A stretch of DNA of 64,000 nucleotides from a phage. The translations under genes and the position numbers were made by a program. Below, one piece after another: positions 4,885 to 25,843 of the stretch. Location: sequence record PZ386953.1. One strand, written 5' to 3'. Numbering within the stretch: position 1 is the stretch's first letter; each line of letters starts with the position of its first letter. The notes under the pieces were generated by a model. That model worked only from the letters and a program-made list of their open reading frames with translations. It was not told where the DNA came from and searched no databases.

Positions 4885-6956
4885 TGGCAACAGCTGTTTT
4901 TAAACCTTACCGTGATTACTCTACAATGGCTGCACGGTTTCATTACCGCACAGTTCAGGATACTGCCGTTCCTGGTAGGGATTATGATCATGTTGAGGGC
5001 GATATAACTATCCCAGTTGGGGCAACCAGTATTGAAATCCCAGTGGAAATTGTTGACAAATTACCCAACAGGTTACCAAGAAGCTTCTTTATGGAGTTTT
5101 CATCAAAATCTCAAGGGGTGATGATTGGGACACAAAGGGCGAAATGTACAATAGTTTCAGATGAGAATCTTGACAGAATATCTTGGGATACTGTCGAGGA
5201 GAGAATGTTTCACCCAAGATATTGGGTTACAACCACTCAGCAGACTGAAAGTACCTGTATTGTTGCAGATGACAACTGTTGTATTAACCGTTTAGTGTCA
5301 AGAACATATGGAGGTATGGCTGGGTGCATTTGGGAAACAGTTGACAAGTATGACCATTTCGGTATTGGGTTTGATGATCACTATGAGATGAGAAACACCA
5401 AGCTTTGGTTCAGAATGTCAATAACCAATGCCAGCAACTTCTCCACTCCTGAAAAGATGATTATGACTGTAGACCTTGTTGATGGTACAATCATCTATGT
5501 TCCTTTAGCTCAATATGCTGTCAGCATCTCAGAGGATAAGAATGTTGCAGAGATTCATATTGATTTCGAGGACTGCGTCGGGATGGATCAGAACAACAAC
5601 ATGATGGGTGTTGATCCTCGACAGGTGAGAAGAATTTTAATACCGCTCATGCCTAAAGACTGGGTAAGTAATAGCACAGACCCGAGAACGGAAAATGTAG
5701 AGTGTGAGTTGCGCCTAGATCTGCTTCAGCCAGACACGGGCTGGAAAATGATGCAACTTAACAATATTCAGGTTAAAGAGCACGACGTTGGGATCTGCAC
5801 CGCATATGACGATATGTGGAACGTATCTCCTTTAAGGGTGTTGAACAATATCAAGCGTCTGGGCTATACCGGAACCATAAACCATTATGTTGGTATGAGT
5901 CATTATTATGACTACACATGGTCAGGAACCCAATGGTCTATAAACAGAACAGGAGCGCTAAACGCTGCAGCTTATAAATGGCATGATGATTTTATGTACA
6001 ATGCCAAACGACATAACTTCGACGTTATGCAATCTGTAAGTTTTGAGCTTTTCAGCGATGCCTGCCCGTTGGAATGGACCCAAAGAGACTGGAACGATAA
6101 CTACGCTAAAACAGGGTATACACCTTGTAGCTACCTCCTGTCTCCAACCATTGAAGAGGGTATGAATTTCCTTACTGCAGTATTTAAGAATTTTGCATCA
6201 GCCGCTATGAGAAACAACCTGCCAGTGATTATGCAGGTTGGTGAACCGTGGTGGTGGTACAATACCGATACTCGTAGACCTTGTATTTATGATTACCCTA
6301 CAAAACAGGCGTTTTATGATGAGACAGGCGAGTATGCCTTAGATATTGGGACTATTGACGATCCTAAAACTGGAGGTGTTTACGACAAGTATGTAGCATT
6401 TTGTCGTGGTAAGCTTGGCGCTCGTATTGCGGCTATTTCAAAGGCAATAAAGGCACACGCTGCATCAGCTCAGATGACAGCTCTGCTGTTTTTCCCAACC
6501 ATTATGGAAACCGAGCTTACGCAAAAGCTTAACCTTGCTGACCAATATAAAAAAGAAGCAGGCGCTCTTGATTTCTTCTGCACTGAGTGCTACGATTGGG
6601 TGATGCAGGGAGGTATTGAAAAGGCAAAAGAGTCTGTAAACATACCTATCGTTAAGTTAGGTTGGCAACCGTCTGAAATACAATACCTTGCAGGGTTCGT
6701 TCCTAGTAAAGAGCTTGCTCCGGTATATGGATACGACCCAACTAGGAATTACCAAGAATTTTTATGGAGATGTATTTGCGGAAACATGGCAACTATAGAG
6801 TATAGATACCCTGAGGTAAAACAGTATGTGTGGGCATACCCGCAAGTAATGTCTGACAGCATCACTGTTACCGCTAGAGATTCTACCGTGCTTCATATGG
6901 GGCAGGTTGCTCTGAAAGGGTATGTAGAAGATGTTGTCCCGCCAGACTTCTCATAA
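4884..6956 (+). CDS. hypothetical structural protein
   Basis: 690-aa ORF; TAATG stop-start overlap with upstream gene; AGGAGGG RBS. Confidence 0.4.
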   Translation: MATAVFKPYRDYSTMAARFHYRTVQDTAVPGRDYDHVEGDITIPVGATSIEIPVEIVDKLPNRLPRSFFMEFSSKSQGVMIGTQRAKCTIVSDENLDRISWDTVEERMFHPRYWVTTTQQTESTCIVADDNCCINRLVSRTYGGMAGCIWETVDKYDHFGIGFDDHYEMRNTKLWFRMSITNASNFSTPEKMIMTVDLVDGTIIYVPLAQYAVSISEDKNVAEIHIDFEDCVGMDQNNNMMGVDPRQVRRILIPLMPKDWVSNSTDPRTENVECELRLDLLQPDTGWKMMQLNNIQVKEHDVGICTAYDDMWNVSPLRVLNNIKRLGYTGTINHYVGMSHYYDYTWSGTQWSINRTGALNAAAYKWHDDFMYNAKRHNFDVMQSVSFELFSDACPLEWTQRDWNDNYAKTGYTPCSYLLSPTIEEGMNFLTAVFKNFASAAMRNNLPVIMQVGEPWWWYNTDTRRPCIYDYPTKQAFYDETGEYALDIGTIDDPKTGGVYDKYVAFCRGKLGARIAAISKAIKAHAASAQMTALLFFPTIMETELTQKLNLADQYKKEAGALDFFCTECYDWVMQGGIEKAKESVNIPIVKLGWQPSEIQYLAGFVPSKELAPVYGYDPTRNYQEFLWRCICGNMATIEYRYPEVKQYVWAYPQVMSDSITVTARDSTVLHMGQVALKGYVEDVVPPDFS

Positions 6957-17832: not shown

Positions 17833-18033
17833 TTAGTAATACTCCCAACATGCCCCATCTTCAGACGGCTTGACGCGCTTACCTTTATGGTCAACATAGG
17901 TATAGCCACAACCTTCACAAATAACAGGTGCTGCATAGCCTTCCTTCCACTGATCCTCAGTGATCAGACCTTCCAAATCTTTGCAGTCAAAGCCAAACAA
18001 CTCTTCAGAGCAATCTTTACAAAAATCAGCCAT
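17833..18033 (-). CDS. zinc-ribbon protein
   Basis: 66 aa with two CxxC pairs; starts just after the bidirectional terminator. Confidence 0.4.
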   Translation of the reverse strand: MADFCKDCSEELFGFDCKDLEGLITEDQWKEGYAAPVICEGCGYTYVDHKGKRVKPSEDGACWEYY

Positions 18034-18036
18034 TTC

Positions 18037-18444
18037 TCAGTCCTCGCATTTAACAAATTTTTCTATAGATCCACCAAGCACAGCTTGTTGTTTGATGGCA
18101 CTTTCTTCATCATAGTGGATAGACTTATGTTCCGTACCTCCAAACTTACCTGTGTGGAAGGTGTGCACCCAAATCTCTTTAGGAAGGTATTTATTCTCTT
18201 CCTCCACCAACTCCCACATACCCCACAAGTGATCTGTGATATCTCTGATGAAATATCCCTCGCCGAGGTTTGTATTCACACTGTAAGCTGATTCGTGATC
18301 TCCGCAAATATAACGGAAGGCAGTGTACTCTTTACCTGGTGTGAAGTGAGTATCCATTAGTATGGCTGTTAAAGAATAAGGGTCTCGAAAGCCCAAGAAC
18401 TTTAGTTTAACAATTTCGACATTTACATCTGCAAGATTATCCAT
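18037..18444 (-). CDS. hypothetical protein, weak metallophosphoesterase-like motifs
   Basis: ATG preceded by AGAGGAG on the - strand (tool start is 57 nt upstream); MDTH and GDHE motifs. Confidence 0.3.
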   Translation of the reverse strand: MDNLADVNVEIVKLKFLGFRDPYSLTAILMDTHFTPGKEYTAFRYICGDHESAYSVNTNLGEGYFIRDITDHLWGMWELVEEENKYLPKEIWVHTFHTGKFGGTEHKSIHYDEESAIKQQAVLGGSIEKFVKCED

Positions 18445-18605
18445 GACGATCTCCTCTGTTTGGTTGGTGAGAATTATATATAGATCTGGTGGTGGTGTCA
18501 AGCTTAATTTTAAGAGATCTGAGAGGGTATTTTATTCAGGAAGGCAATCGCACAGGGTGGAGAAATTTATGAAGGAACAGGCCTCGTTTGAGGCCTTAAA
18601 TTCTA

Positions 18606-18986
18606 TTATGACACTTTGACATAGCGCTCTGACAAAGCTGGGAAGCCAAAAGTAGTGCCGATACTACCATAGGCTATCCACCATTGGAGTTCATCGTGAC
18701 ACCATTTTCCGATCAGGAAGGTGCTGGGATAGCGGGTCAGTATTTTGGCATAAGCTTTAGGATCTACATCTTCTGGGATAATGATGCTTGGAATATCTTT
18801 GTTATGACCACAGCAGCAGTTTAGCGTTTTCAAACCTGCTGCCCACAAACTCATGATAGGCTTAGCCATACACTTATCAAGGCACACACGTTTTTTGCCG
18901 TCACGAAGATTTTTAGGCACATCAACGATAACATTTGGATGCTTGGCACCTTTCACTTTCCAATTATAGGATTTACACTTGCACAT
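18606..18986 (-). CDS. Cys/His-rich protein, possible HNH-type nuclease
   Basis: 126 aa, CKCK...CCCGHN cysteine cluster; GGAGA RBS. Confidence 0.3.
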   Translation of the reverse strand: MCKCKSYNWKVKGAKHPNVIVDVPKNLRDGKKRVCLDKCMAKPIMSLWAAGLKTLNCCCGHNKDIPSIIIPEDVDPKAYAKILTRYPSTFLIGKWCHDELQWWIAYGSIGTTFGFPALSERYVKVS

Positions 18987-19036
18987 TTAATCAGTCTCCG
19001 TCTAGAAAGCCGCACTATACGTTTTTGAGGTATACT

Positions 19037-19207
19037 TTACTTAAAGTCTTTATCACCTGCCACGATTGCATGAATCCACTCATTGTGATGCTCAATAGCG
19101 GTGAGATGTAACATGATGTAGTGATCGTCATTGCCAAACATGATATGATAGGCTTTGGCAGCATTTTGATATAACTTCCACATCAGGTAATGATATCTTC
19201 GCCTCAT
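19037..19207 (-). CDS. small hypothetical protein (56 aa)
   Basis: ORF fills the intergenic gap, GGAG about 9 nt upstream; below tool size cutoff. Confidence 0.25.
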   Translation of the reverse strand: MRRRYHYLMWKLYQNAAKAYHIMFGNDDHYIMLHLTAIEHHNEWIHAIVAGDKDFK

Positions 19208-19212
19208 GGCTC

Positions 19213-19683
19213 TTACTCCGGTTCAGGATCTGGGTAATCTTCAATAATAAAGGGCCATCCGTTCCGCTTAGCCTCAGACTTATACTCAATCTCCTTCATT
19301 GCAAACTCTAACTGATTCTTAGCCGGAATACATGCCGGAGAATCATCAATCCAGATATCTGGGTAGATATCAAACTGCGCCAGGTAGGCTGCCTTCTGAA
19401 CACCACCTGTGTAGAACACACCAACATCGAGCTCCTTGCGCCAATACTCAATGTCTACATTGTCTTGAGTAATGAATCGGAAAGTCACAAGGTAGACTGT
19501 CCACCCCTCCTTCTTCAGATCCCTGATCAGGCTGGAGAAGATGAAAGGGCTCGCATTAAACGTTCCATCAAAGTCGATGGCAATGATGTGCGTGCCGTGG
19601 CGAGTCTCATATGGATTGCTCGTGGTAAGATTGCTGTAATTAAAAGGGACTTCTTCCCCGCAGTAGCTGTAGTCCATATTCAC
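19213..19683 (-). CDS. HAD-superfamily phosphatase-like protein
   Basis: IAIDFDGT near the N-terminus matches HAD motif I (DxDGT). Confidence 0.45.
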   Translation of the reverse strand: MNMDYSYCGEEVPFNYSNLTTSNPYETRHGTHIIAIDFDGTFNASPFIFSSLIRDLKKEGWTVYLVTFRFITQDNVDIEYWRKELDVGVFYTGGVQKAAYLAQFDIYPDIWIDDSPACIPAKNQLEFAMKEIEYKSEAKRNGWPFIIEDYPDPEPE

Positions 19684-19955
19684 ACCTTCTCGTTGATAAA
19701 TTTACGGGCGGTTTGGTGAGTTGTTTCTGCTGTCTTCAGAATGATATTAATTTTATCGTCAAGATCATTCATCTCGGCAGTTAATTCAGGAATCTCTCCG
19801 GCATGCATGGTGAAATCATACATAGACATGCCCAAGATCTCATTGATGCGGCGGTTGCATTCTGCAGCACGCTGGTTCATTTTCCAAGCTAACACCAAAG
19901 CCTCCTGCGTAGCCTCTAGTGCAAAATCTAATACGTCGGCCTCTTCTTTCGTCAT
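19680..19955 (-). CDS. hypothetical protein
   Basis: 91-aa ORF, 4-nt overlap with downstream gene. Confidence 0.35.
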   Translation of the reverse strand: MTKEEADVLDFALEATQEALVLAWKMNQRAAECNRRINEILGMSMYDFTMHAGEIPELTAEMNDLDDKINIILKTAETTHQTARKFINEKV

Positions 19956-20012
19956 CTTAGTCTCTCCTGTTGTATTGTTGGTAGGTGTATGAATACCTTA
20001 TAACTCACCTTT

Positions 20013-20579
20013 TTATTCAAACTGCAATAGTAAGTCCACCACCGCGCTAGGTCTGTCAACAAATTCCCCAGGTCCACATGCCCACAGAGGGTATCCGTCT
20101 ACATACCGCCAAATCCAACCTGCAGTGTGGAGTTCGAGCAGGGCAGTACCGTCCTTACTGTCAACCACTCTTTCCCACAGTGTCGGGCAGCGAAGCTTGA
20201 GGATCGGATCCCCTCCCTTATACCCATCCATGTAGATACCCATTGCAAAGTTCAGCATCATCTTTTTGTGCACTGATCTTTTACTGAGGGTACTCATCAC
20301 TTCCTCTTTGTGAATGTTTGTAAGCTTCTCCTTGGCTACCCGCAGATCGTTGCAACCATTGTTCAGCAGATCTTCCAGACACTTGATCCGAAGGTCGTGA
20401 ATGTCTTTGTCGTGTACCGTTGGCACAGGGTCGTAGCGGTATAGCACTGTTGATACAAGGTTGCTCGGGTGTGGGTCTGACAGCAACCCATAACCCCAAT
20501 ACTCTTCTGTATCTGAAAGGACAAGACACCCAATGTCTCTGTCAAGCTTTCCTGTGTTGTAAGCCACATTGACCGCCAT
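20013..20579 (-). CDS. hypothetical protein
   Basis: 188-aa ORF in co-directional packed block. Confidence 0.4.
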   Translation of the reverse strand: MAVNVAYNTGKLDRDIGCLVLSDTEEYWGYGLLSDPHPSNLVSTVLYRYDPVPTVHDKDIHDLRIKCLEDLLNNGCNDLRVAKEKLTNIHKEEVMSTLSKRSVHKKMMLNFAMGIYMDGYKGGDPILKLRCPTLWERVVDSKDGTALLELHTAGWIWRYVDGYPLWACGPGEFVDRPSAVVDLLLQFE

Positions 20580-20581
20580 GA

Positions 20582-20827
20582 CTATAGCTCCACTAGCAAA
20601 GTGCTTTCAAAGTGCCGTTCATGCAAACCGTTGTAAGGGACCACTTCTACAACGCCATCACGGACATATGGGGCCATCATGGTGGTATAATCTCCAAACG
20701 GGTTGGTATTGTCACTAACCACAACCACCTTCTGCCCTTCCTTGGCAGAGTGCCAAATAGATCTGCACTTCATCAGGTGTTCGAGAGCTCCAGGTAAAAT
20801 TTTGTTACGTTCTTTACGGGTCTTCAT
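20582..20827 (-). CDS. hypothetical protein
   Basis: 81-aa ORF, 4-nt overlap with upstream gene. Confidence 0.35.
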   Translation of the reverse strand: MKTRKERNKILPGALEHLMKCRSIWHSAKEGQKVVVVSDNTNPFGDYTTMMAPYVRDGVVEVVPYNGLHERHFESTLLVEL

Positions 20828-21273
20828 AGCAGGTATAGCTCCTTATGAAAGTGATCTTTTAATTTCTCACTGAGAAACCTCTTGATACCTTCCTCTAAAG
20901 TGTTTTCGATGTAGTCCAGCTTAACTGCTTCGATGGACATATCATAGATTGCCAGCTCTAAGCTGTCAAGTCCCATCATAGCATGAACCATAAGATTTTC
21001 ATCTTCAGATACATTCAGGGGACTTCCTATAACATCTGGAGGCAGAATAGTTTCCCAATTATTCTGGGTGGTAGTTCTCCCGCCATCTACTTTACGGCGC
21101 AGTTCGAATGTGTTCTTAGTGTAGAACACTTCATAAGAAACGATACGACTGTCACTCTCATAATAAACGAAGTTCAGGTAGGAGCCTAGCCGCAGTCGGC
21201 AAACTTCCACCCCAAACCATTGTTTCTTATAAGAATTCAGGCTAATGCTGTCGCATTCACGTTTGCTCAACAC
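20824..21273 (-). CDS. hypothetical protein
   Basis: 149-aa ORF. Confidence 0.35.
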   Translation of the reverse strand: MLSKRECDSISLNSYKKQWFGVEVCRLRLGSYLNFVYYESDSRIVSYEVFYTKNTFELRRKVDGGRTTTQNNWETILPPDVIGSPLNVSEDENLMVHAMMGLDSLELAIYDMSIEAVKLDYIENTLEEGIKRFLSEKLKDHFHKELYLL

Positions 21274-21289
21274 GGCTATCTCCTTTTTG

Positions 21290-21523
21290 TTAATCTTCGT
21301 AAATCAGGATTTCTGCTTTAGGTTTTCGTGCTTTCAGGTCCAGCTCTATCCAGTGCACCATAGCTGTTTCAAGAAAAACAGCTTGGATGCATCCGTCCTC
21401 AGCGTGCCCCACCAACATAACGAGATCTTCACCTTCGTCATCTGCATCACGAACATAAAGAATCTCTCCAGATTCGAAGTCTTTCACAACCTGATTGCTA
21501 GATAATTTTCTAATTTTTGCCAT
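21290..21523 (-). CDS. small protein, divergent member of tandem paralog family
   Basis: 77 aa; shares G-x-V/I...V...F/L...D...IL pattern with the three 87-aa genes downstream. Confidence 0.4.
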   Translation of the reverse strand: MAKIRKLSSNQVVKDFESGEILYVRDADDEGEDLVMLVGHAEDGCIQAVFLETAMVHWIELDLKARKPKAEILIYED

Positions 21524-21524
21524 A

Positions 21525-21788
21525 TCAGAAACCCTCTAAAAAGCTCTTGTAGAAAACAATCTCAGTATCCACACCAGTCACAATCTTGTCGTTCCTGATT
21601 TCATCGGTAAGATAGGTGTCAAAACGCAGAACCTGTGTGGTGTTGTCACACATCCACTCAGCTGTGACCATTGCGAAAATCTTAGCATCTTCATTATCTG
21701 GTGTGAATGTTACCACCTCACCGCACTTAAACTTTTCGATAGGCTGAGTGTTAGCTTTCGGTTCTGCGATAGTGATTTTTGTGGTCAT
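21525..21788 (-). CDS. small protein, tandem paralog 1
   Basis: 87 aa; FxCGxVV...FD...VTxxD pattern. Confidence 0.4.
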   Translation of the reverse strand: MTTKITIAEPKANTQPIEKFKCGEVVTFTPDNEDAKIFAMVTAEWMCDNTTQVLRFDTYLTDEIRNDKIVTGVDTEIVFYKSFLEGF

Positions 21789-22051
21789 TATTCTCCTCCT
21801 TCTTTTGAATAGCTTGTCTCTCCAAGGATGGTAATTTTGGTGTCAAGCTCTGTAACTTTCATGTTTGGCGGCAGATCGTACAACTCATTATTTTCTAAAT
21901 CGAACCCCCACACACAATGTTCTCCTGTTTTGACAATCATAACTATGTTTTGAATGCCGTCTCCGTCGCAACTTACCACGGTCCCACACGGAAAACTGTC
22001 TGCACGCTTTTTGTTCTTCACCTTAGAATTGAATACAATGCTGGTAGCCAT
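21788..22051 (-). CDS. small protein, tandem paralog 2
   Basis: 87 aa; same pattern; 1-nt overlap with neighbours. Confidence 0.4.
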   Translation of the reverse strand: MATSIVFNSKVKNKKRADSFPCGTVVSCDGDGIQNIVMIVKTGEHCVWGFDLENNELYDLPPNMKVTELDTKITILGETSYSKEGGE

Positions 22052-22314
22052 TATTGTTCCTCCACCATAACTTCGCCAAGAATTTCTATGCAGGCATCCA
22101 TTTCTGTAACAACCAAACTGTGAGGCAGTTCTACAAACACCTTTCTGAACAGGTCAAATACCCCAACATATATGTTTGCAGGATGTGATTTTACAACAAG
22201 TGCTGTATTCACATCCCCAAGTTCATCAACAAACATCACCACAGTGCCTGGAGCTACTGAGGACAGATACTTCTTAGTTTTACGGTTTGATGCAAATTTT
22301 AACTCTGTTGCCAT
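22051..22314 (-). CDS. small protein, tandem paralog 3
   Basis: 87 aa; same pattern. Confidence 0.4.
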   Translation of the reverse strand: MATELKFASNRKTKKYLSSVAPGTVVMFVDELGDVNTALVVKSHPANIYVGVFDLFRKVFVELPHSLVVTEMDACIEILGEVMVEEQ

Positions 22315-22329
22315 AAATAACCTCCTCTC

Positions 22330-23811
22330 TTACTTAGCGTACTCGATTAATTCCACAGTTTTCCCAAAGCTCGGGATATAATTTTTATTATACCCCTCAG
22401 TGAGGACCCATAGAGTATCGTACTTTTTCCACTTGTTGTCAACAACCTTTTGTTCAAAGTTATGCTCAAAGTATAGGTCGGTCAGGACGATGACATCTTT
22501 TGCATTAGGTATGTTGGCATCCAGATACTCGAACACGCAAGCAGCTGTTGTGCCCCATGTTGAGTGGACCTCATAGTTGACCATCTCGTCTATGTTGCCG
22601 CGAGTGTATACTTTAACCTCTCCAACCTCAGTTGACCAACAGAACATTGTAACCTTAAACTCTTTATACAGATTGCACAATCCGGTGATTTCATTGAACA
22701 TTTTCTTTAAAGTTCTTTGAGAGATCGAGCCAGAAACGTCTAAAGCCACCACAATATCTATAGTGTTTTCCGGATTACGACCAGGAACAATAACGTGCTG
22801 GTTCTTGTTTATAGCCCCAACTTTTCGCATTGTGCTGGTCAAAGACCCAGATCGGCGACCAGGTTTTCTGTAGGTCAGTTCGGCCTTTCTTTTAGACAAC
22901 ATACGTTGCTTAATGATGTCTATATAGTTGATTACAGGCTTACCTCTGTTCTTGACAAACTCACGCACCGCCTCAGGGCAACGGCCTCCGGACGCTTGCA
23001 TTGCTGCCTCCAGCATATCACCAGAGTCCTGCATGGCCTGATCTTTATCAGATTGGCTGATTACAGGTTGTGGCTGATCATACCCCATAGCCTTTCCAAG
23101 ATTATCACTGGTGCCACCGTTCCCACTCATGTGATCATCGGTTTGTCGCTTATCACTTTGAGAGTTCTCACCTTTACCGTTCTTACTTTTACCGTTATTC
23201 TGATCTCTTTGCTTATCAAGAACTGCATAAACGTTCTCAGCAATCCATCCATGAAACTTCATGTCGCAGTAGCAGCTGGCTAAGAAGCCAAAAGGCTTAC
23301 CTTTCATGAACGTAGTGCTTTTCCCCTTCGGGAAGAAAACACAAGGAGGTTTGCTAAAGTCAACCACAAGGCCTGTGTTGATAACGTGATCACAAGCAAT
23401 ATTGAACAGTTCCGGCTCAAAGCTTTTACCACGGACTAGGTGATCACAGATAATATGCCCCACCTCATGTGACAGAAGGAAGGCCACCTCTTTCACAGAT
23501 TTTGGGGAATAGAAAACTTCAGCCATCTCAAACTGCTCGTCAGTTAGAGAAGCCTTAAGAATAGCCTTGCGTTCATCAGCCAATCCCATAATGAACTCAG
23601 GACTGTAATAGATGCGTTTATGGTCGGTTGCCATGGTGGAGCACCATGTGTGGTTTTCTACGAACTGCAACCCTGACAGTAGTGTGCCATAAAACGGCAA
23701 CTTTTCAAGGAGATACATACGTGCAGCCTGCAACATTCTCAGGGCATCATCTTTCTGCGAGGCAATGATTTCTGAACTTCTGCTATCCATTAAAACTCCA
23801 GGAGGGGCCAT
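22330..23811 (-). CDS. putative zinc metallopeptidase - vWA domain protein
   Basis: HEVGH (HExxH) in N-terminal half; DVSGS (vWA MIDAS DxSxS) in C-terminal half; alternative start at 23790 has a better RBS (first ATG lies inside a hairpin). Confidence 0.6.
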   Translation of the reverse strand: MAPPGVLMDSRSSEIIASQKDDALRMLQAARMYLLEKLPFYGTLLSGLQFVENHTWCSTMATDHKRIYYSPEFIMGLADERKAILKASLTDEQFEMAEVFYSPKSVKEVAFLLSHEVGHIICDHLVRGKSFEPELFNIACDHVINTGLVVDFSKPPCVFFPKGKSTTFMKGKPFGFLASCYCDMKFHGWIAENVYAVLDKQRDQNNGKSKNGKGENSQSDKRQTDDHMSGNGGTSDNLGKAMGYDQPQPVISQSDKDQAMQDSGDMLEAAMQASGGRCPEAVREFVKNRGKPVINYIDIIKQRMLSKRKAELTYRKPGRRSGSLTSTMRKVGAINKNQHVIVPGRNPENTIDIVVALDVSGSISQRTLKKMFNEITGLCNLYKEFKVTMFCWSTEVGEVKVYTRGNIDEMVNYEVHSTWGTTAACVFEYLDANIPNAKDVIVLTDLYFEHNFEQKVVDNKWKKYDTLWVLTEGYNKNYIPSFGKTVELIEYAK

Positions 23812-23823
23812 TGGCCCCTGTCA

Positions 23824-24864
23824 TTATTTAACGTGTTTGAAAATACCTGCCAACTCGGTCATTGTCATGCGGGTGGTCTTCATAAGATCTGTCATAGCTT
23901 TCTCCATAATTGGAGATACTACCATAAAGTTTCCTTTAGTGAAACCTTTATTCCAGTCGGTCACCAACAGGGGTTTAAGTCCAGCTCCAAGACGTTCACC
24001 AGTTAAAGCACAGCATTTGCGAATATACGAACTCTTAAATTGGCTGAACGACAGATCAACTTTCATACCTACATCGTAGAACGTTTGACAATAGAAAGTG
24101 TAAGCTTTGGCAATCTCAACATCATCAGGTAGTGCAGGAACCTCTTCTGTAAGCCCCTCTTCGACCTCCTGAGTCTCTTTTTCCTCTTCATGCACCTGTT
24201 GCGTCATTTCTTCAATCTCTTCTGTGATAGGCTCGTTTACAATGTCGGAAATGTGCTTCTTGGGTGCACGATAAGTAACTTTAGACATCGGTAGCATATC
24301 TTCCTCCTCTTCTTCGTCAAAGAGTGCTAGTTTATCCTCTTCCGTTCCATATTGCAAGATGAAATCTTCAAAAGTATAATCACCTTTCAATTTCTCCATA
24401 CGCTCTTCGCTCAGGTGGAGCATCATCTGCTGGACAATTTTTCGATCAGTTTCGTCTTTAATCAAGACTGCAGTCTTTTTATCTACCAGACAGTCCTTTA
24501 GAGAGTTGCATCTCAATCCCACCACACAACAGTTATCAACCGCATAAGGACCTTCATCATCTATCCGCTCCAGGGATGGGTAGAAAGGATTCCCCAGCCC
24601 GTTTTCATCTGTGTGCATGTCAAAAGGTATAAGGGTATAGTCGCATACTCCATCTCCTAAAAGTTTTTTACCAAATAGGAGGTATTCTTCCCATGACAGG
24701 TCGAACTCTATATCTCGTTTCCGTGCGTTATTCTGTTTGCGTCTATATTTTTTGAGCAAGCGCTCTAACTCTTCTGGTGTATAATATTTTTCAAGATTCA
24801 TGAGTCGTCTCTCGTGCTCTGTAAGTGAAGAAATCGTATCAATTGTCTCAACAGATGTCAACAT
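23824..24864 (-). CDS. acidic protein with two related Cys-containing segments
   Basis: 346 aa; poly-E linker; N- and C-terminal segments both begin LSW/FxxY/F; internal MSKVTYRA encoded by a 29-bp repeat. Confidence 0.4.
   Translation of the reverse strand: MLTSVETIDTISSLTEHERRLMNLEKYYTPEELERLLKKYRRKQNNARKRDIEFDLSWEEYLLFGKKLLGDGVCDYTLIPFDMHTDENGLGNPFYPSLERIDDEGPYAVDNCCVVGLRCNSLKDCLVDKKTAVLIKDETDRKIVQQMMLHLSEERMEKLKGDYTFEDFILQYGTEEDKLALFDEEEEEDMLPMSKVTYRAPKKHISDIVNEPITEEIEEMTQQVHEEEKETQEVEEGLTEEVPALPDDVEIAKAYTFYCQTFYDVGMKVDLSFSQFKSSYIRKCCALTGERLGAGLKPLLVTDWNKGFTKGNFMVVSPIMEKAMTDLMKTTRMTMTELAGIFKHVK
24265..24293 (-). repeat. 29-bp inverted repeat, arm 1
   Basis: Reverse complement of TACCGATGTCTAAAGTTACTTATCGTGCA, inside the 346-aa - strand gene. 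Confidence 0.8.
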
Positions 24865-24874
24865 CAAAAACGTG

Positions 24875-24903
24875 TTGACTTTACTCTAACTCCACAATAT
24901 AGT
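24875..24903 (+). promoter_or_regulatory. sigma70-like promoter
   Basis: TTGACT-17 bp-TATAGT at the strand-switch region. Confidence 0.5.
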
Positions 24904-24943
24904 GCACCCATTCGAAAGAAAACTAACATAGGAGCACTTACTT

Positions 24944-25843
24944 ATGGCAAATCTTAACAGTTTTAGTACGCGGTGGAAACAGGACATAACAACCAATCTT
25001 TCAGCTGGGGACATCCTTTCTGCAATTTACGAGGCTTTAGATGATAAAGCTACTTCAAAAGCGGTTTGTACCAACCCATTAATTCCTATAGTGATGAAGG
25101 TTATTGAGCGTAGATTGGTATCTGGGTCTGATAAGTGGACATATTTAGATAATGAAGGACACACCTATTCCAATGGGTATGTCGATATAAAAGTAGAATA
25201 CGCGGTATCATACCGCCGGAGCGGTTCTGTAACTTTCAACTTCTCTGGAGGTTTTCGATCTCTGGCTACCTCACCTTTTGTTTCCTCGGAGGAGAAGTAT
25301 GAGCTGCCATTTCTTTGGATGATGGCTAACGCGACAGGAAAAACCCCCGTTAGCATCCGAGTAAAATACAACTACAACGGATCTAGTAAGATCTATGCCG
25401 AAAGTGTCTCAGCAAGTTTTTATTTTGTGATGGGGGATGGAATCCTCAAACATATAAAGATGTGCGATATGCATGATGTTATAAATGAAGTGACTGATAA
25501 GAATGTTCTAGTGAAAGACCTCAACAATTTTTATACACCTGGAGACTATTACGTCAGCCGTCCACTGTGCATCTTTAATGCCGCACACCCTCTAGGTGAG
25601 TATTTGATCGCCAATAGCGATATTGCCAATAACCGCTTCGAGGTAGCAAGAGTTCAGAATGAGGTATTGACATCTTGCAAGAGCGGTGATAAGTTTACCG
25701 AAGAAGAGATGGGTGTTTTAGAAATGATGGGATATAAGTGTAGCCTTTGGGTAGATGAGGTGTTTAATGATTGCATCTATGGACAGGATATTTACCCATT
25801 AAAGAAGTATACTGATACAAGTTTAATTTATGCGAGGGTTTGA
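24944..25843 (+). CDS. hypothetical protein
   Basis: 299-aa ORF; AGGAG RBS; consensus-like promoter 24875-24903 upstream. Confidence 0.45.
   Translation: MANLNSFSTRWKQDITTNLSAGDILSAIYEALDDKATSKAVCTNPLIPIVMKVIERRLVSGSDKWTYLDNEGHTYSNGYVDIKVEYAVSYRRSGSVTFNFSGGFRSLATSPFVSSEEKYELPFLWMMANATGKTPVSIRVKYNYNGSSKIYAESVSASFYFVMGDGILKHIKMCDMHDVINEVTDKNVLVKDLNNFYTPGDYYVSRPLCIFNAAHPLGEYLIANSDIANNRFEVARVQNEVLTSCKSGDKFTEEEMGVLEMMGYKCSLWVDEVFNDCIYGQDIYPLKKYTDTSLIYARV

Follow-up and report, generated by a model that had tools for sequence, protein, structure and literature searches.

The array and its predicted operon

The DNA analysed here, a 64,000-nt stretch of sequence record PZ386953.1 called the window in what follows, belongs to the genome of a Vequintavirus (rV5/Murica-like) Escherichia coli phage. 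Over 20000-25000 it shares 99.8% identity with Escherichia phages Murica and CM1, and this segment has matches in 119 phage records, nearly all of them from Vequintavirus (rV5-like myoviruses). Within a minus-strand gene block, where GC skew is negative from ~18000 to 25000, four small open reading frames (ORFs) stand in tandem, here termed A, B, C and D (Table 1). Three encode 87 aa and one 77 aa, just as an initial annotation of this DNA had described them; all are annotated CDSs in more than 100 GenBank phages, where each is a 'hypothetical protein'. That annotation had also reported 1-nt overlaps throughout the row. These are present at the A/B and B/C junctions, but C and D are separated by a 1-nt gap (TGAtATG).

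Table 1. Features of the array region (window coordinates)
Feature	Coordinates	Strand	Remarks
Gene A, 87 aa, first array member	22051..22314	-	phrog_10698, E 7.6e-43; variable slot
Gene B, 87 aa, second member	21788..22051	-	phrog_10698; variable slot; start overlaps stop of A (TAATG)
Gene C, 87 aa, third member	21525..21788	-	phrog_12861; corresponds to rV5 gp15; start overlaps stop of B (TAATG)
Gene D, 77 aa, fourth and most diverged member	21290..21523	-	phrog_12046; corresponds to rV5 gp16; starts 1 nt after stop of C
Exchangeable cassette, nearly all of A and B	21800..22299	-	in rV5-type phages ~230 nt with one gene (gp14 type)
Gene for putative metallopeptidase with DUF2201 and VWA-like domain	22330..23811	-	upstream, same operon; conserved left-hand anchor
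Gene for Srd-like putative anti-sigma factor	23824..24867	-	operon gene 1; ORF start TTG
149-aa gene	20824..21273	-	downstream of array; conserved right-hand anchor
Sigma-70-like promoter candidate (TTGACA-17-TACGAT with TG)	24833..24861	-	consensus scan; predicted for the leftward operon

A GGAGG-like ribosome-binding site precedes every start codon of the four genes. Gene A has a strong Shine-Dalgarno sequence, GAGAGGAGG, at 22321-22329. The sites of B and C fall within the last codons of the preceding gene, and the Glu/Gly-rich tails of the proteins result from this overlap. The four proteins have masses of 8.7-10 kDa and are acidic (pI 4.2-5.0); they contain no membrane or signal segments and no hydrophobic run of more than 7 residues. 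They are small, soluble proteins and, we infer, translationally coupled and made together.

Two larger genes lie ahead of the array. The first matches phrog_4592 'decoy of host sigma70' (E 5.6e-15) and phrog_1400 'Srd anti-sigma factor' (E 4.5e-10); it is shorter in GenBank records, which annotate a 325-aa version. Its product in rV5, gp11, has been named an Srd homolog, and rV5 genes 11-26 have been proposed to form one transcription unit (PMC3606486). The second has Pfam matches to DUF2201_N (E 4.4e-28) and DUF2201 (E 2.9e-11), and is syntenic in a sister clade and in other Vequintavirinae genera. Homologs of the 149-aa gene directly follow the DUF2201 gene in Seunavirus, Henunavirus and Certrevirus, and in the sister clade follow a single member of the array family.

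At a place equivalent to that of the promoter candidate in Table 1, rV5 has an annotated sigma-70-type promoter, P11. Our scan of the region found no minus-strand terminator-like site before 19659. On the promoter consensus and the gene order, we infer that A-D are transcribed early, from a promoter of sigma-70 type that precedes the Srd-like gene. Other sigma-70-like matches lie inside the operon on the minus strand (22414-22442, 22050-22079, 21679-21707 and 20941-20969), one just upstream of A and one, an 11/12 match, within the 149-aa gene; the region has 21 such matches in total against a shuffled expectation of 15.9 (sd 3.6), which is not clearly above.

Homology of the four genes

The initial annotation had taken the four genes to be highly diverged paralogs with a weak common pattern, G-x-V-V ... 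F-D ... V-T-E-x-D ... I-L-G. The pattern is complete in A and B (GTVV, FDL, VTE[ML]D, ILG) and partial in C (GEVV, RFD, VTGVD); of its elements D has only the first (GEIL), with VTE-x-D and ILG both missing. Pairwise, A and B are obviously related, with 37% identity and a Smith-Waterman score that exceeds shuffled sequences at p ~4e-11. The same test gave p 0.0015 for B-C, 0.003 for C-D and 0.012 for B-D; scores for A-C, for A-D and for D against rV5 gp14, the protein whose gene takes the place of A and B in rV5, were not significant. PHROG assigns the proteins to three families: A and B match phrog_10698 over their full length (E 1e-41 to 1e-43), C matches phrog_12861 (E 9e-62) and D matches phrog_12046 (E 5e-55). 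A faint match of C to phrog_10698 crosses these boundaries.

Profile alignment with hhalign, using a profile of 11 sequences of A, B, gp14 and sister-clade types, brought in the two remaining members. C was aligned with a probability of 93% (P 3.2e-7, 72 columns, score 39.9) and D with 85% (P 6.5e-6, 69 nearly ungapped columns, score 32.8), while column-shuffled controls (200 for D) reached at most 18.9 for C and 22.3 for D. These probabilities depended on the inclusion of diverged members: that of C rose from 84% with the A/B/gp14 profile to 93%, and that of D climbed from 2% through 54% to 85%. When 300 ORFs of the window were scanned with the profile, the top four were B, A, C and D, the last with a score of 29.1 over 74 columns; the fifth-best scored 19.7 over 7 columns.

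We also built separate HMMs for the three groups (A/B/gp14, C and D) and ran each on the 313 ORFs of the window. With the A/B/gp14 HMM, C was found at E 3.5e-5 and D came third among ORFs outside the family of the HMM (E 0.22). The C HMM ranked B and D first, and the D HMM put C and B at the top of 312 other ORFs. A single-copy protein of the sister clade, P0044, is matched by all three HMMs (ABX 2e-11, C 6.9e-4, D 1.7e-3), and by these matches it acts as an intermediate sequence that links the groups.

The proposed paralogy is thus borne out, by plain pairwise similarity for A and B and, for C and D, by profile alignments that exceed both shuffled and real-ORF controls; similarity is significant for all members, and D, at 85%, is the weakest link. 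Judged by sequence comparison, A, B and C are certainly homologous and D is very probably homologous to them. The comparisons show that three PHROG families treated as unrelated (10698, 12861 and 12046) make up one superfamily. No other ORF of the window matched the family profile, the 81-aa gene at 20582-20827 included. An 86-88 aa gene just upstream of the DUF2201 gene in Seunavirus, Henunavirus and Klebsiella phages was considered as a displaced member and rejected (hhalign P 0.03-0.47).

Predicted fold

AlphaFold2 gave an all-beta model of eight strands for B (pLDDT 76.8, pTM 0.61), from an alignment of A, B, gp14 and C types, and an all-beta model of seven strands for D (pLDDT 69.8), from an alignment of D sequences only; both models are of medium confidence and have the same order of strands. 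When they are placed in the hhalign register, strand agreement is 69-72% of positions at shifts of 0 to +2, compared with 25-59% at all other shifts. The result speaks for a common architecture of B and D, one that on the side of D was modelled independently of the sequences of the other paralogs.

The model of B resembles SH3-like (Tudor/KOW) small barrels, and the family is predicted to fold as an SH3-like beta-barrel of the Tudor/KOW class with an N-terminal beta extension. A profile search of the PDB is in agreement, although at sub-threshold level: its best matches had E-values of 0.14-1.3, and the sub-threshold ones included SPT5 KOW and eS4. The likeness to the small barrels of the Tudor, KOW and ribosomal uL2 class is one of predicted fold; searches of Pfam and NCBIfam gave no match and so no signature of a specific family, such as a KOW motif or a Tudor aromatic cage.

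Among the predicted viral structures of BFVD, the B model retrieved A and the gp14 type first and then many uncharacterised phage proteins of 70-90 aa, while the D model retrieved its own family and then, weakly, several targets common to the list of B. Many of these proteins with a predicted small-barrel architecture come from unrelated large phages (for example N4 gp21 and proteins of SU7, LAMP, Erwinia phage Cronus and Proteus phage 3H10_20; TM 0.5-0.75). N4 gp21, A0A8F3C9H7 of phage SU7 and A0A2I6PD60 of phage LAMP are similar in size and predicted fold to the array proteins (Foldseek E 1e-3 to 5e-2, TM 0.5-0.75). Sequence identity is 10-20% and no sequence search links them; the likeness may be at the level of the fold only. 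The predicted architecture may represent a widespread class of small phage proteins.

These models also bear on the place of D. Only A, B and probably C might be true paralogs, and D an unrelated small beta protein adjoining the array that came to resemble them by convergence in size, beta periodicity and acidic composition. The missing motifs, the pairwise scores of D with A and with gp14, the early hhalign runs at 2% and 54%, and a BFVD comparison in which the D model met a gp14-type model at E 0.51 only would all fit such an origin. It is disfavoured by the result with the enlarged profile, which lies above all 200 shuffled controls and the 296 other ORFs, by the D HMM, which puts C and B ahead of every other ORF and also reaches P0044 in the sister clade, and by strands that match B in register in a model made without the other paralogs. 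We regard separate ancestry of D as quite unlikely, and treat the four genes as one family below.

Distribution and copy number

With A/B/gp14, C and D as queries, word-indexed searches of 5.8 billion proteins returned only close relatives, all on rV5-like contigs. An exhaustive HMMER scan of 1.84 billion representative sequences found six real clusters only, again on rV5-like phage contigs; it added two distant members (P0043 and P0044) and one spurious repeat protein (P0045). Among cultured phages, family members occur in Vequintavirus only.

The number of family members in the slot flanked by the DUF2201 gene and the 149-aa gene is 0, 1, 3 or 4. Other genera of the Vequintavirinae have none there: the slot is empty in Seunavirus GAP31, Henunavirus Hena1, Certrevirus CR8, Klebsiella phage K54_rec4 and Serratia phage Kashira. 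One member is present in five uncultured contigs of the sister clade (L005 and L024-L027), whose flanking proteins are 48-65% identical to those of the window. Three members (gp14 type, C and D) are found in rV5, FV3, Pr121LW and the IMG/VR contigs L028 and L029, and four in the window, LL12, CarlMeissner, Aya, phita32 and a more distant lineage, L016. In BASEL phage CarlMeissner the four genes bear the locus tags bas48_0051 to bas48_0054. Outside the slot, lineage L019 has a lone C-like gene at another position, and L008 a gp14-like gene in another context.

Since one and the same syntenic slot carries 0, 1, 3 or 4 members in related lineages, the simplest reading is that the array arose by tandem duplication at one locus, stepwise from a single copy; the direction of the series is unrooted and losses could explain part of it.

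An exchangeable cassette

Where the window has A and B, rV5 has the one gene gp14, whose product is ~40% identical to both. Genes A and B (A at 90% identity or more) are present in 44 of 118 Vequintavirus records and a single gp14-type gene in the other 74. The rV5 proteins gp15 and gp16 share 99-100% identity with C and D. A blastn comparison of the window with rV5 shows 94.5% identity over 24999-22300 and 97.2% over 21799-19900, with no similarity between; from these boundaries, the exchanged block extends from ~15 nt into the first gene to ~12 nt before the start of C. Phage Pr121LW, whose flanking proteins are 98-100% identical to those of the window, nevertheless carries the single-gene cassette, and such near-identical flanks around a different cassette point to replacement by recombination. 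The idea that the array is unusually variable therefore holds for the A+B segment, which is swapped in 74 of 118 records with sharp boundaries and flanks of 94-100% identity, but not for C and D.

The records compared include 16 named 'Campylobacter phage' (MG0656xx, host C. jejuni) that are ~97-99% identical to E. coli rV5-like phages in this region. Their host or name assignment looks doubtful.

Selection

Within each gene type, synonymous differences prevail: the ratios of synonymous to nonsynonymous counts are 44/7 for C (against phage Aya), 29/8 for D, 22/0 for the gp14 type, 15/10 for B and 7/6 for A. Pairwise dN/dS within types is 0.00-0.29; A and B have 0.15-0.29, compared with 0.02-0.15 for neighbouring genes, and D about 0.04. 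C is 93-100% identical across 118 phages. On these counts every paralog is a real gene under purifying selection. The opposite notion, that the phage could do without these ORFs, that none has a function under selection and that their similarity is the remnant of a recent duplication, could appeal to the lack of known domains, the tiny size and the patchy distribution. It is scarcely credible: the strong synonymous excess in every member contradicts it, intact frames occur across 118 phages and in several metagenomic lineages, and all four genes have good ribosome-binding sites.

Compared with lineage L016, pN is 0.015 for C and 0.028 for D, against 0.25 for A, 0.23 for B and 0.12-0.30 for the flanking genes; pS is saturated in the flanks (about 0.8) and about 0.42 in C and D. 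Both low values indicate that C and D are more constrained, and more recently shared, than their surroundings. Gene C of phage Aya (L013) differs from the window at 44 of about 55 synonymous sites, with a protein 93% identical, and gene D of phita32 (L014) has a dS of about 1.1, with a protein 90% identical. These two are deep allelic lineages held by strong constraint and moved by recombination.

The initial annotation had attributed the divergence of the paralogs to selection, for example against a host defence or receptor. An ongoing arms race of this kind, with positive diversifying selection as the driver, would suit the presence of three cassette types, 37-41% identical, in the same slot of genomes otherwise 94-100% identical, and the dN/dS of A and B, somewhat above that of their neighbours. 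The substitution data do not bear it out: every pairwise dN/dS within a type lies well below 1, and few genes of the region are as constrained as C and D. Comparisons between the A, B and gp14 types meet saturation at synonymous sites (pS about 0.8); the divergence of the paralogs is therefore old, and dN/dS between types is uninformative on positive selection in the past. Nor is a receptor a likely target, since the proteins are small and acidic, have no membrane or signal segments and are encoded in a predicted early operon, not among the tail genes; for proteins that are cytoplasmic, receptor binding is implausible. We consider an ongoing arms race rather unlikely as the source of the divergence.

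Proposed function

Searches of Pfam, PHROGs, NCBIfam, PADLOC, the PDB and BFVD gave no match of known function for A-D, and in the same resources no homology to a characterised inhibitor or host-takeover protein. The literature we searched contained no functional, transcriptomic or anti-defence data on these genes and no transcriptome for the genus.

The best explanation of the whole, to which we give a probability of roughly 0.55, is that A-D represent a lineage-restricted family, expanded in tandem and made early, whose members have divided roles and bind host factors. The family would have grown by tandem duplication from a single copy, and its paralogs would have divided their roles, C and D taking on fixed and strongly constrained jobs. 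The first slot, filled by A and B or by the gp14 type, would be a cassette swapped between phages by homologous recombination at conserved edges. At an early stage of infection each protein would most likely bind to a protein or a nucleic acid of the host, in host takeover or counter-defence, and the variable slot would track a host factor that differs between strains. Host-factor binding is suggested by the position behind the Srd-like anti-sigma gene, the translational coupling, the predicted fold and the pattern of conservation taken together. The idea of a strain-tracking slot comes from the cassette polymorphism and not from substitution rate, as A and B (pN 0.23-0.25) have changed no faster than their early neighbours (0.12-0.30). 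An anti-defence role is possible, though PADLOC, Pfam and NCBIfam gave nothing in its favour.

The main alternative holds that the paralogs are subunits of one hetero-oligomer: an ancestral homo-oligomer of a single barrel would have been duplicated, and the duplicates specialised, with fixed ratios maintained by translational coupling. SH3-like and Sm-like barrels often oligomerise. The 1-nt overlaps and individual ribosome-binding sites amount to tight coupling, and C and D always occur together, conserved together in the three- and four-gene arrays. Co-adapted subunits would, however, fit poorly with a first slot that accepts either one gene or two very different ones while C and D stay nearly unchanged. 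The array moreover works with 1, 3 or 4 members, and L019 carries a lone C-like gene elsewhere. A common complex seems to us a doubtful account of the array.

Taking the preferred reading of host-factor binders further, one may picture the array as a modular early 'binder set', with C and D acting on conserved host targets and the swappable cassette on a host factor, for example a defence protein, that varies between strains. This more specific picture is speculative and we hold it to be improbable as it stands. If it were true, the type of cassette would help to set which E. coli strains support growth of an rV5-like phage after adsorption.

Relation to known systems

Large lytic phages commonly have lineage-specific tandem clusters of paralogous small early 'accessory' genes, for example in the variable early regions of T4-like phages. 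The array is like these in its small, non-structural, promoter-proximal genes, its variable copy number and its cassette exchange; it is unlike them in that two of its four copies, C and D, are unusually conserved. Lineage-specific tandem expansions of such genes are well known from large phages, and in this respect the finding is fairly ordinary.

The genes themselves were already on record: as hypothetical proteins, under the names rV5 gp14-16 and in three PHROGs. New with respect to the literature searched are their status as a single family, the 0/1/3/4 copy series and the cassette exchange, for which we found no earlier report. The family assignment is corrected, in that three database families are merged into one expanding family. 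The rV5-like phages are common coliphages of broad host range and are employed for biocontrol and in therapy cocktails. No role is known for most of their early genes; two conserved members and one swappable slot make a small, defined set of candidates for host range after adsorption.

Observations on neighbouring genes

RefSeq labels the Srd-like and DUF2201 genes as 'HNH endonuclease' and the 149-aa gene as 'tail protein', apparently copied PHROG labels. A Pfam search found no domain in the 149-aa gene, and in the DUF2201 gene DUF2201_N and DUF2201 only.

The reference genome of rV5 (NC_011041; L003 1757-3218) has the DUF2201 gene as two overlapping ORFs, gp12 and gp13. In the window and in other relatives it is a single ORF of 493 aa, and the split in rV5 is a frameshift or a sequencing error.

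Sister-clade contig L005 has a TnpB-like gene (OrfB_IS605 / Cas12f1-like TNB) at 1119-2258, also present in L006. In L005 its neighbours are the homolog of the fucosyltransferase-like gene on one side and the Srd-like gene on the other, and this is where the divergent promoter region lies.

The same operon contains a second local tandem duplication. The 188-aa gene of the window (20013-20579) has a doubled homolog in the sister clade, at 5938-6531 and 6577-7128 of L005 and likewise in L024-L027; these tandem copies are diverged, with 27-30% identity to the protein of the window.
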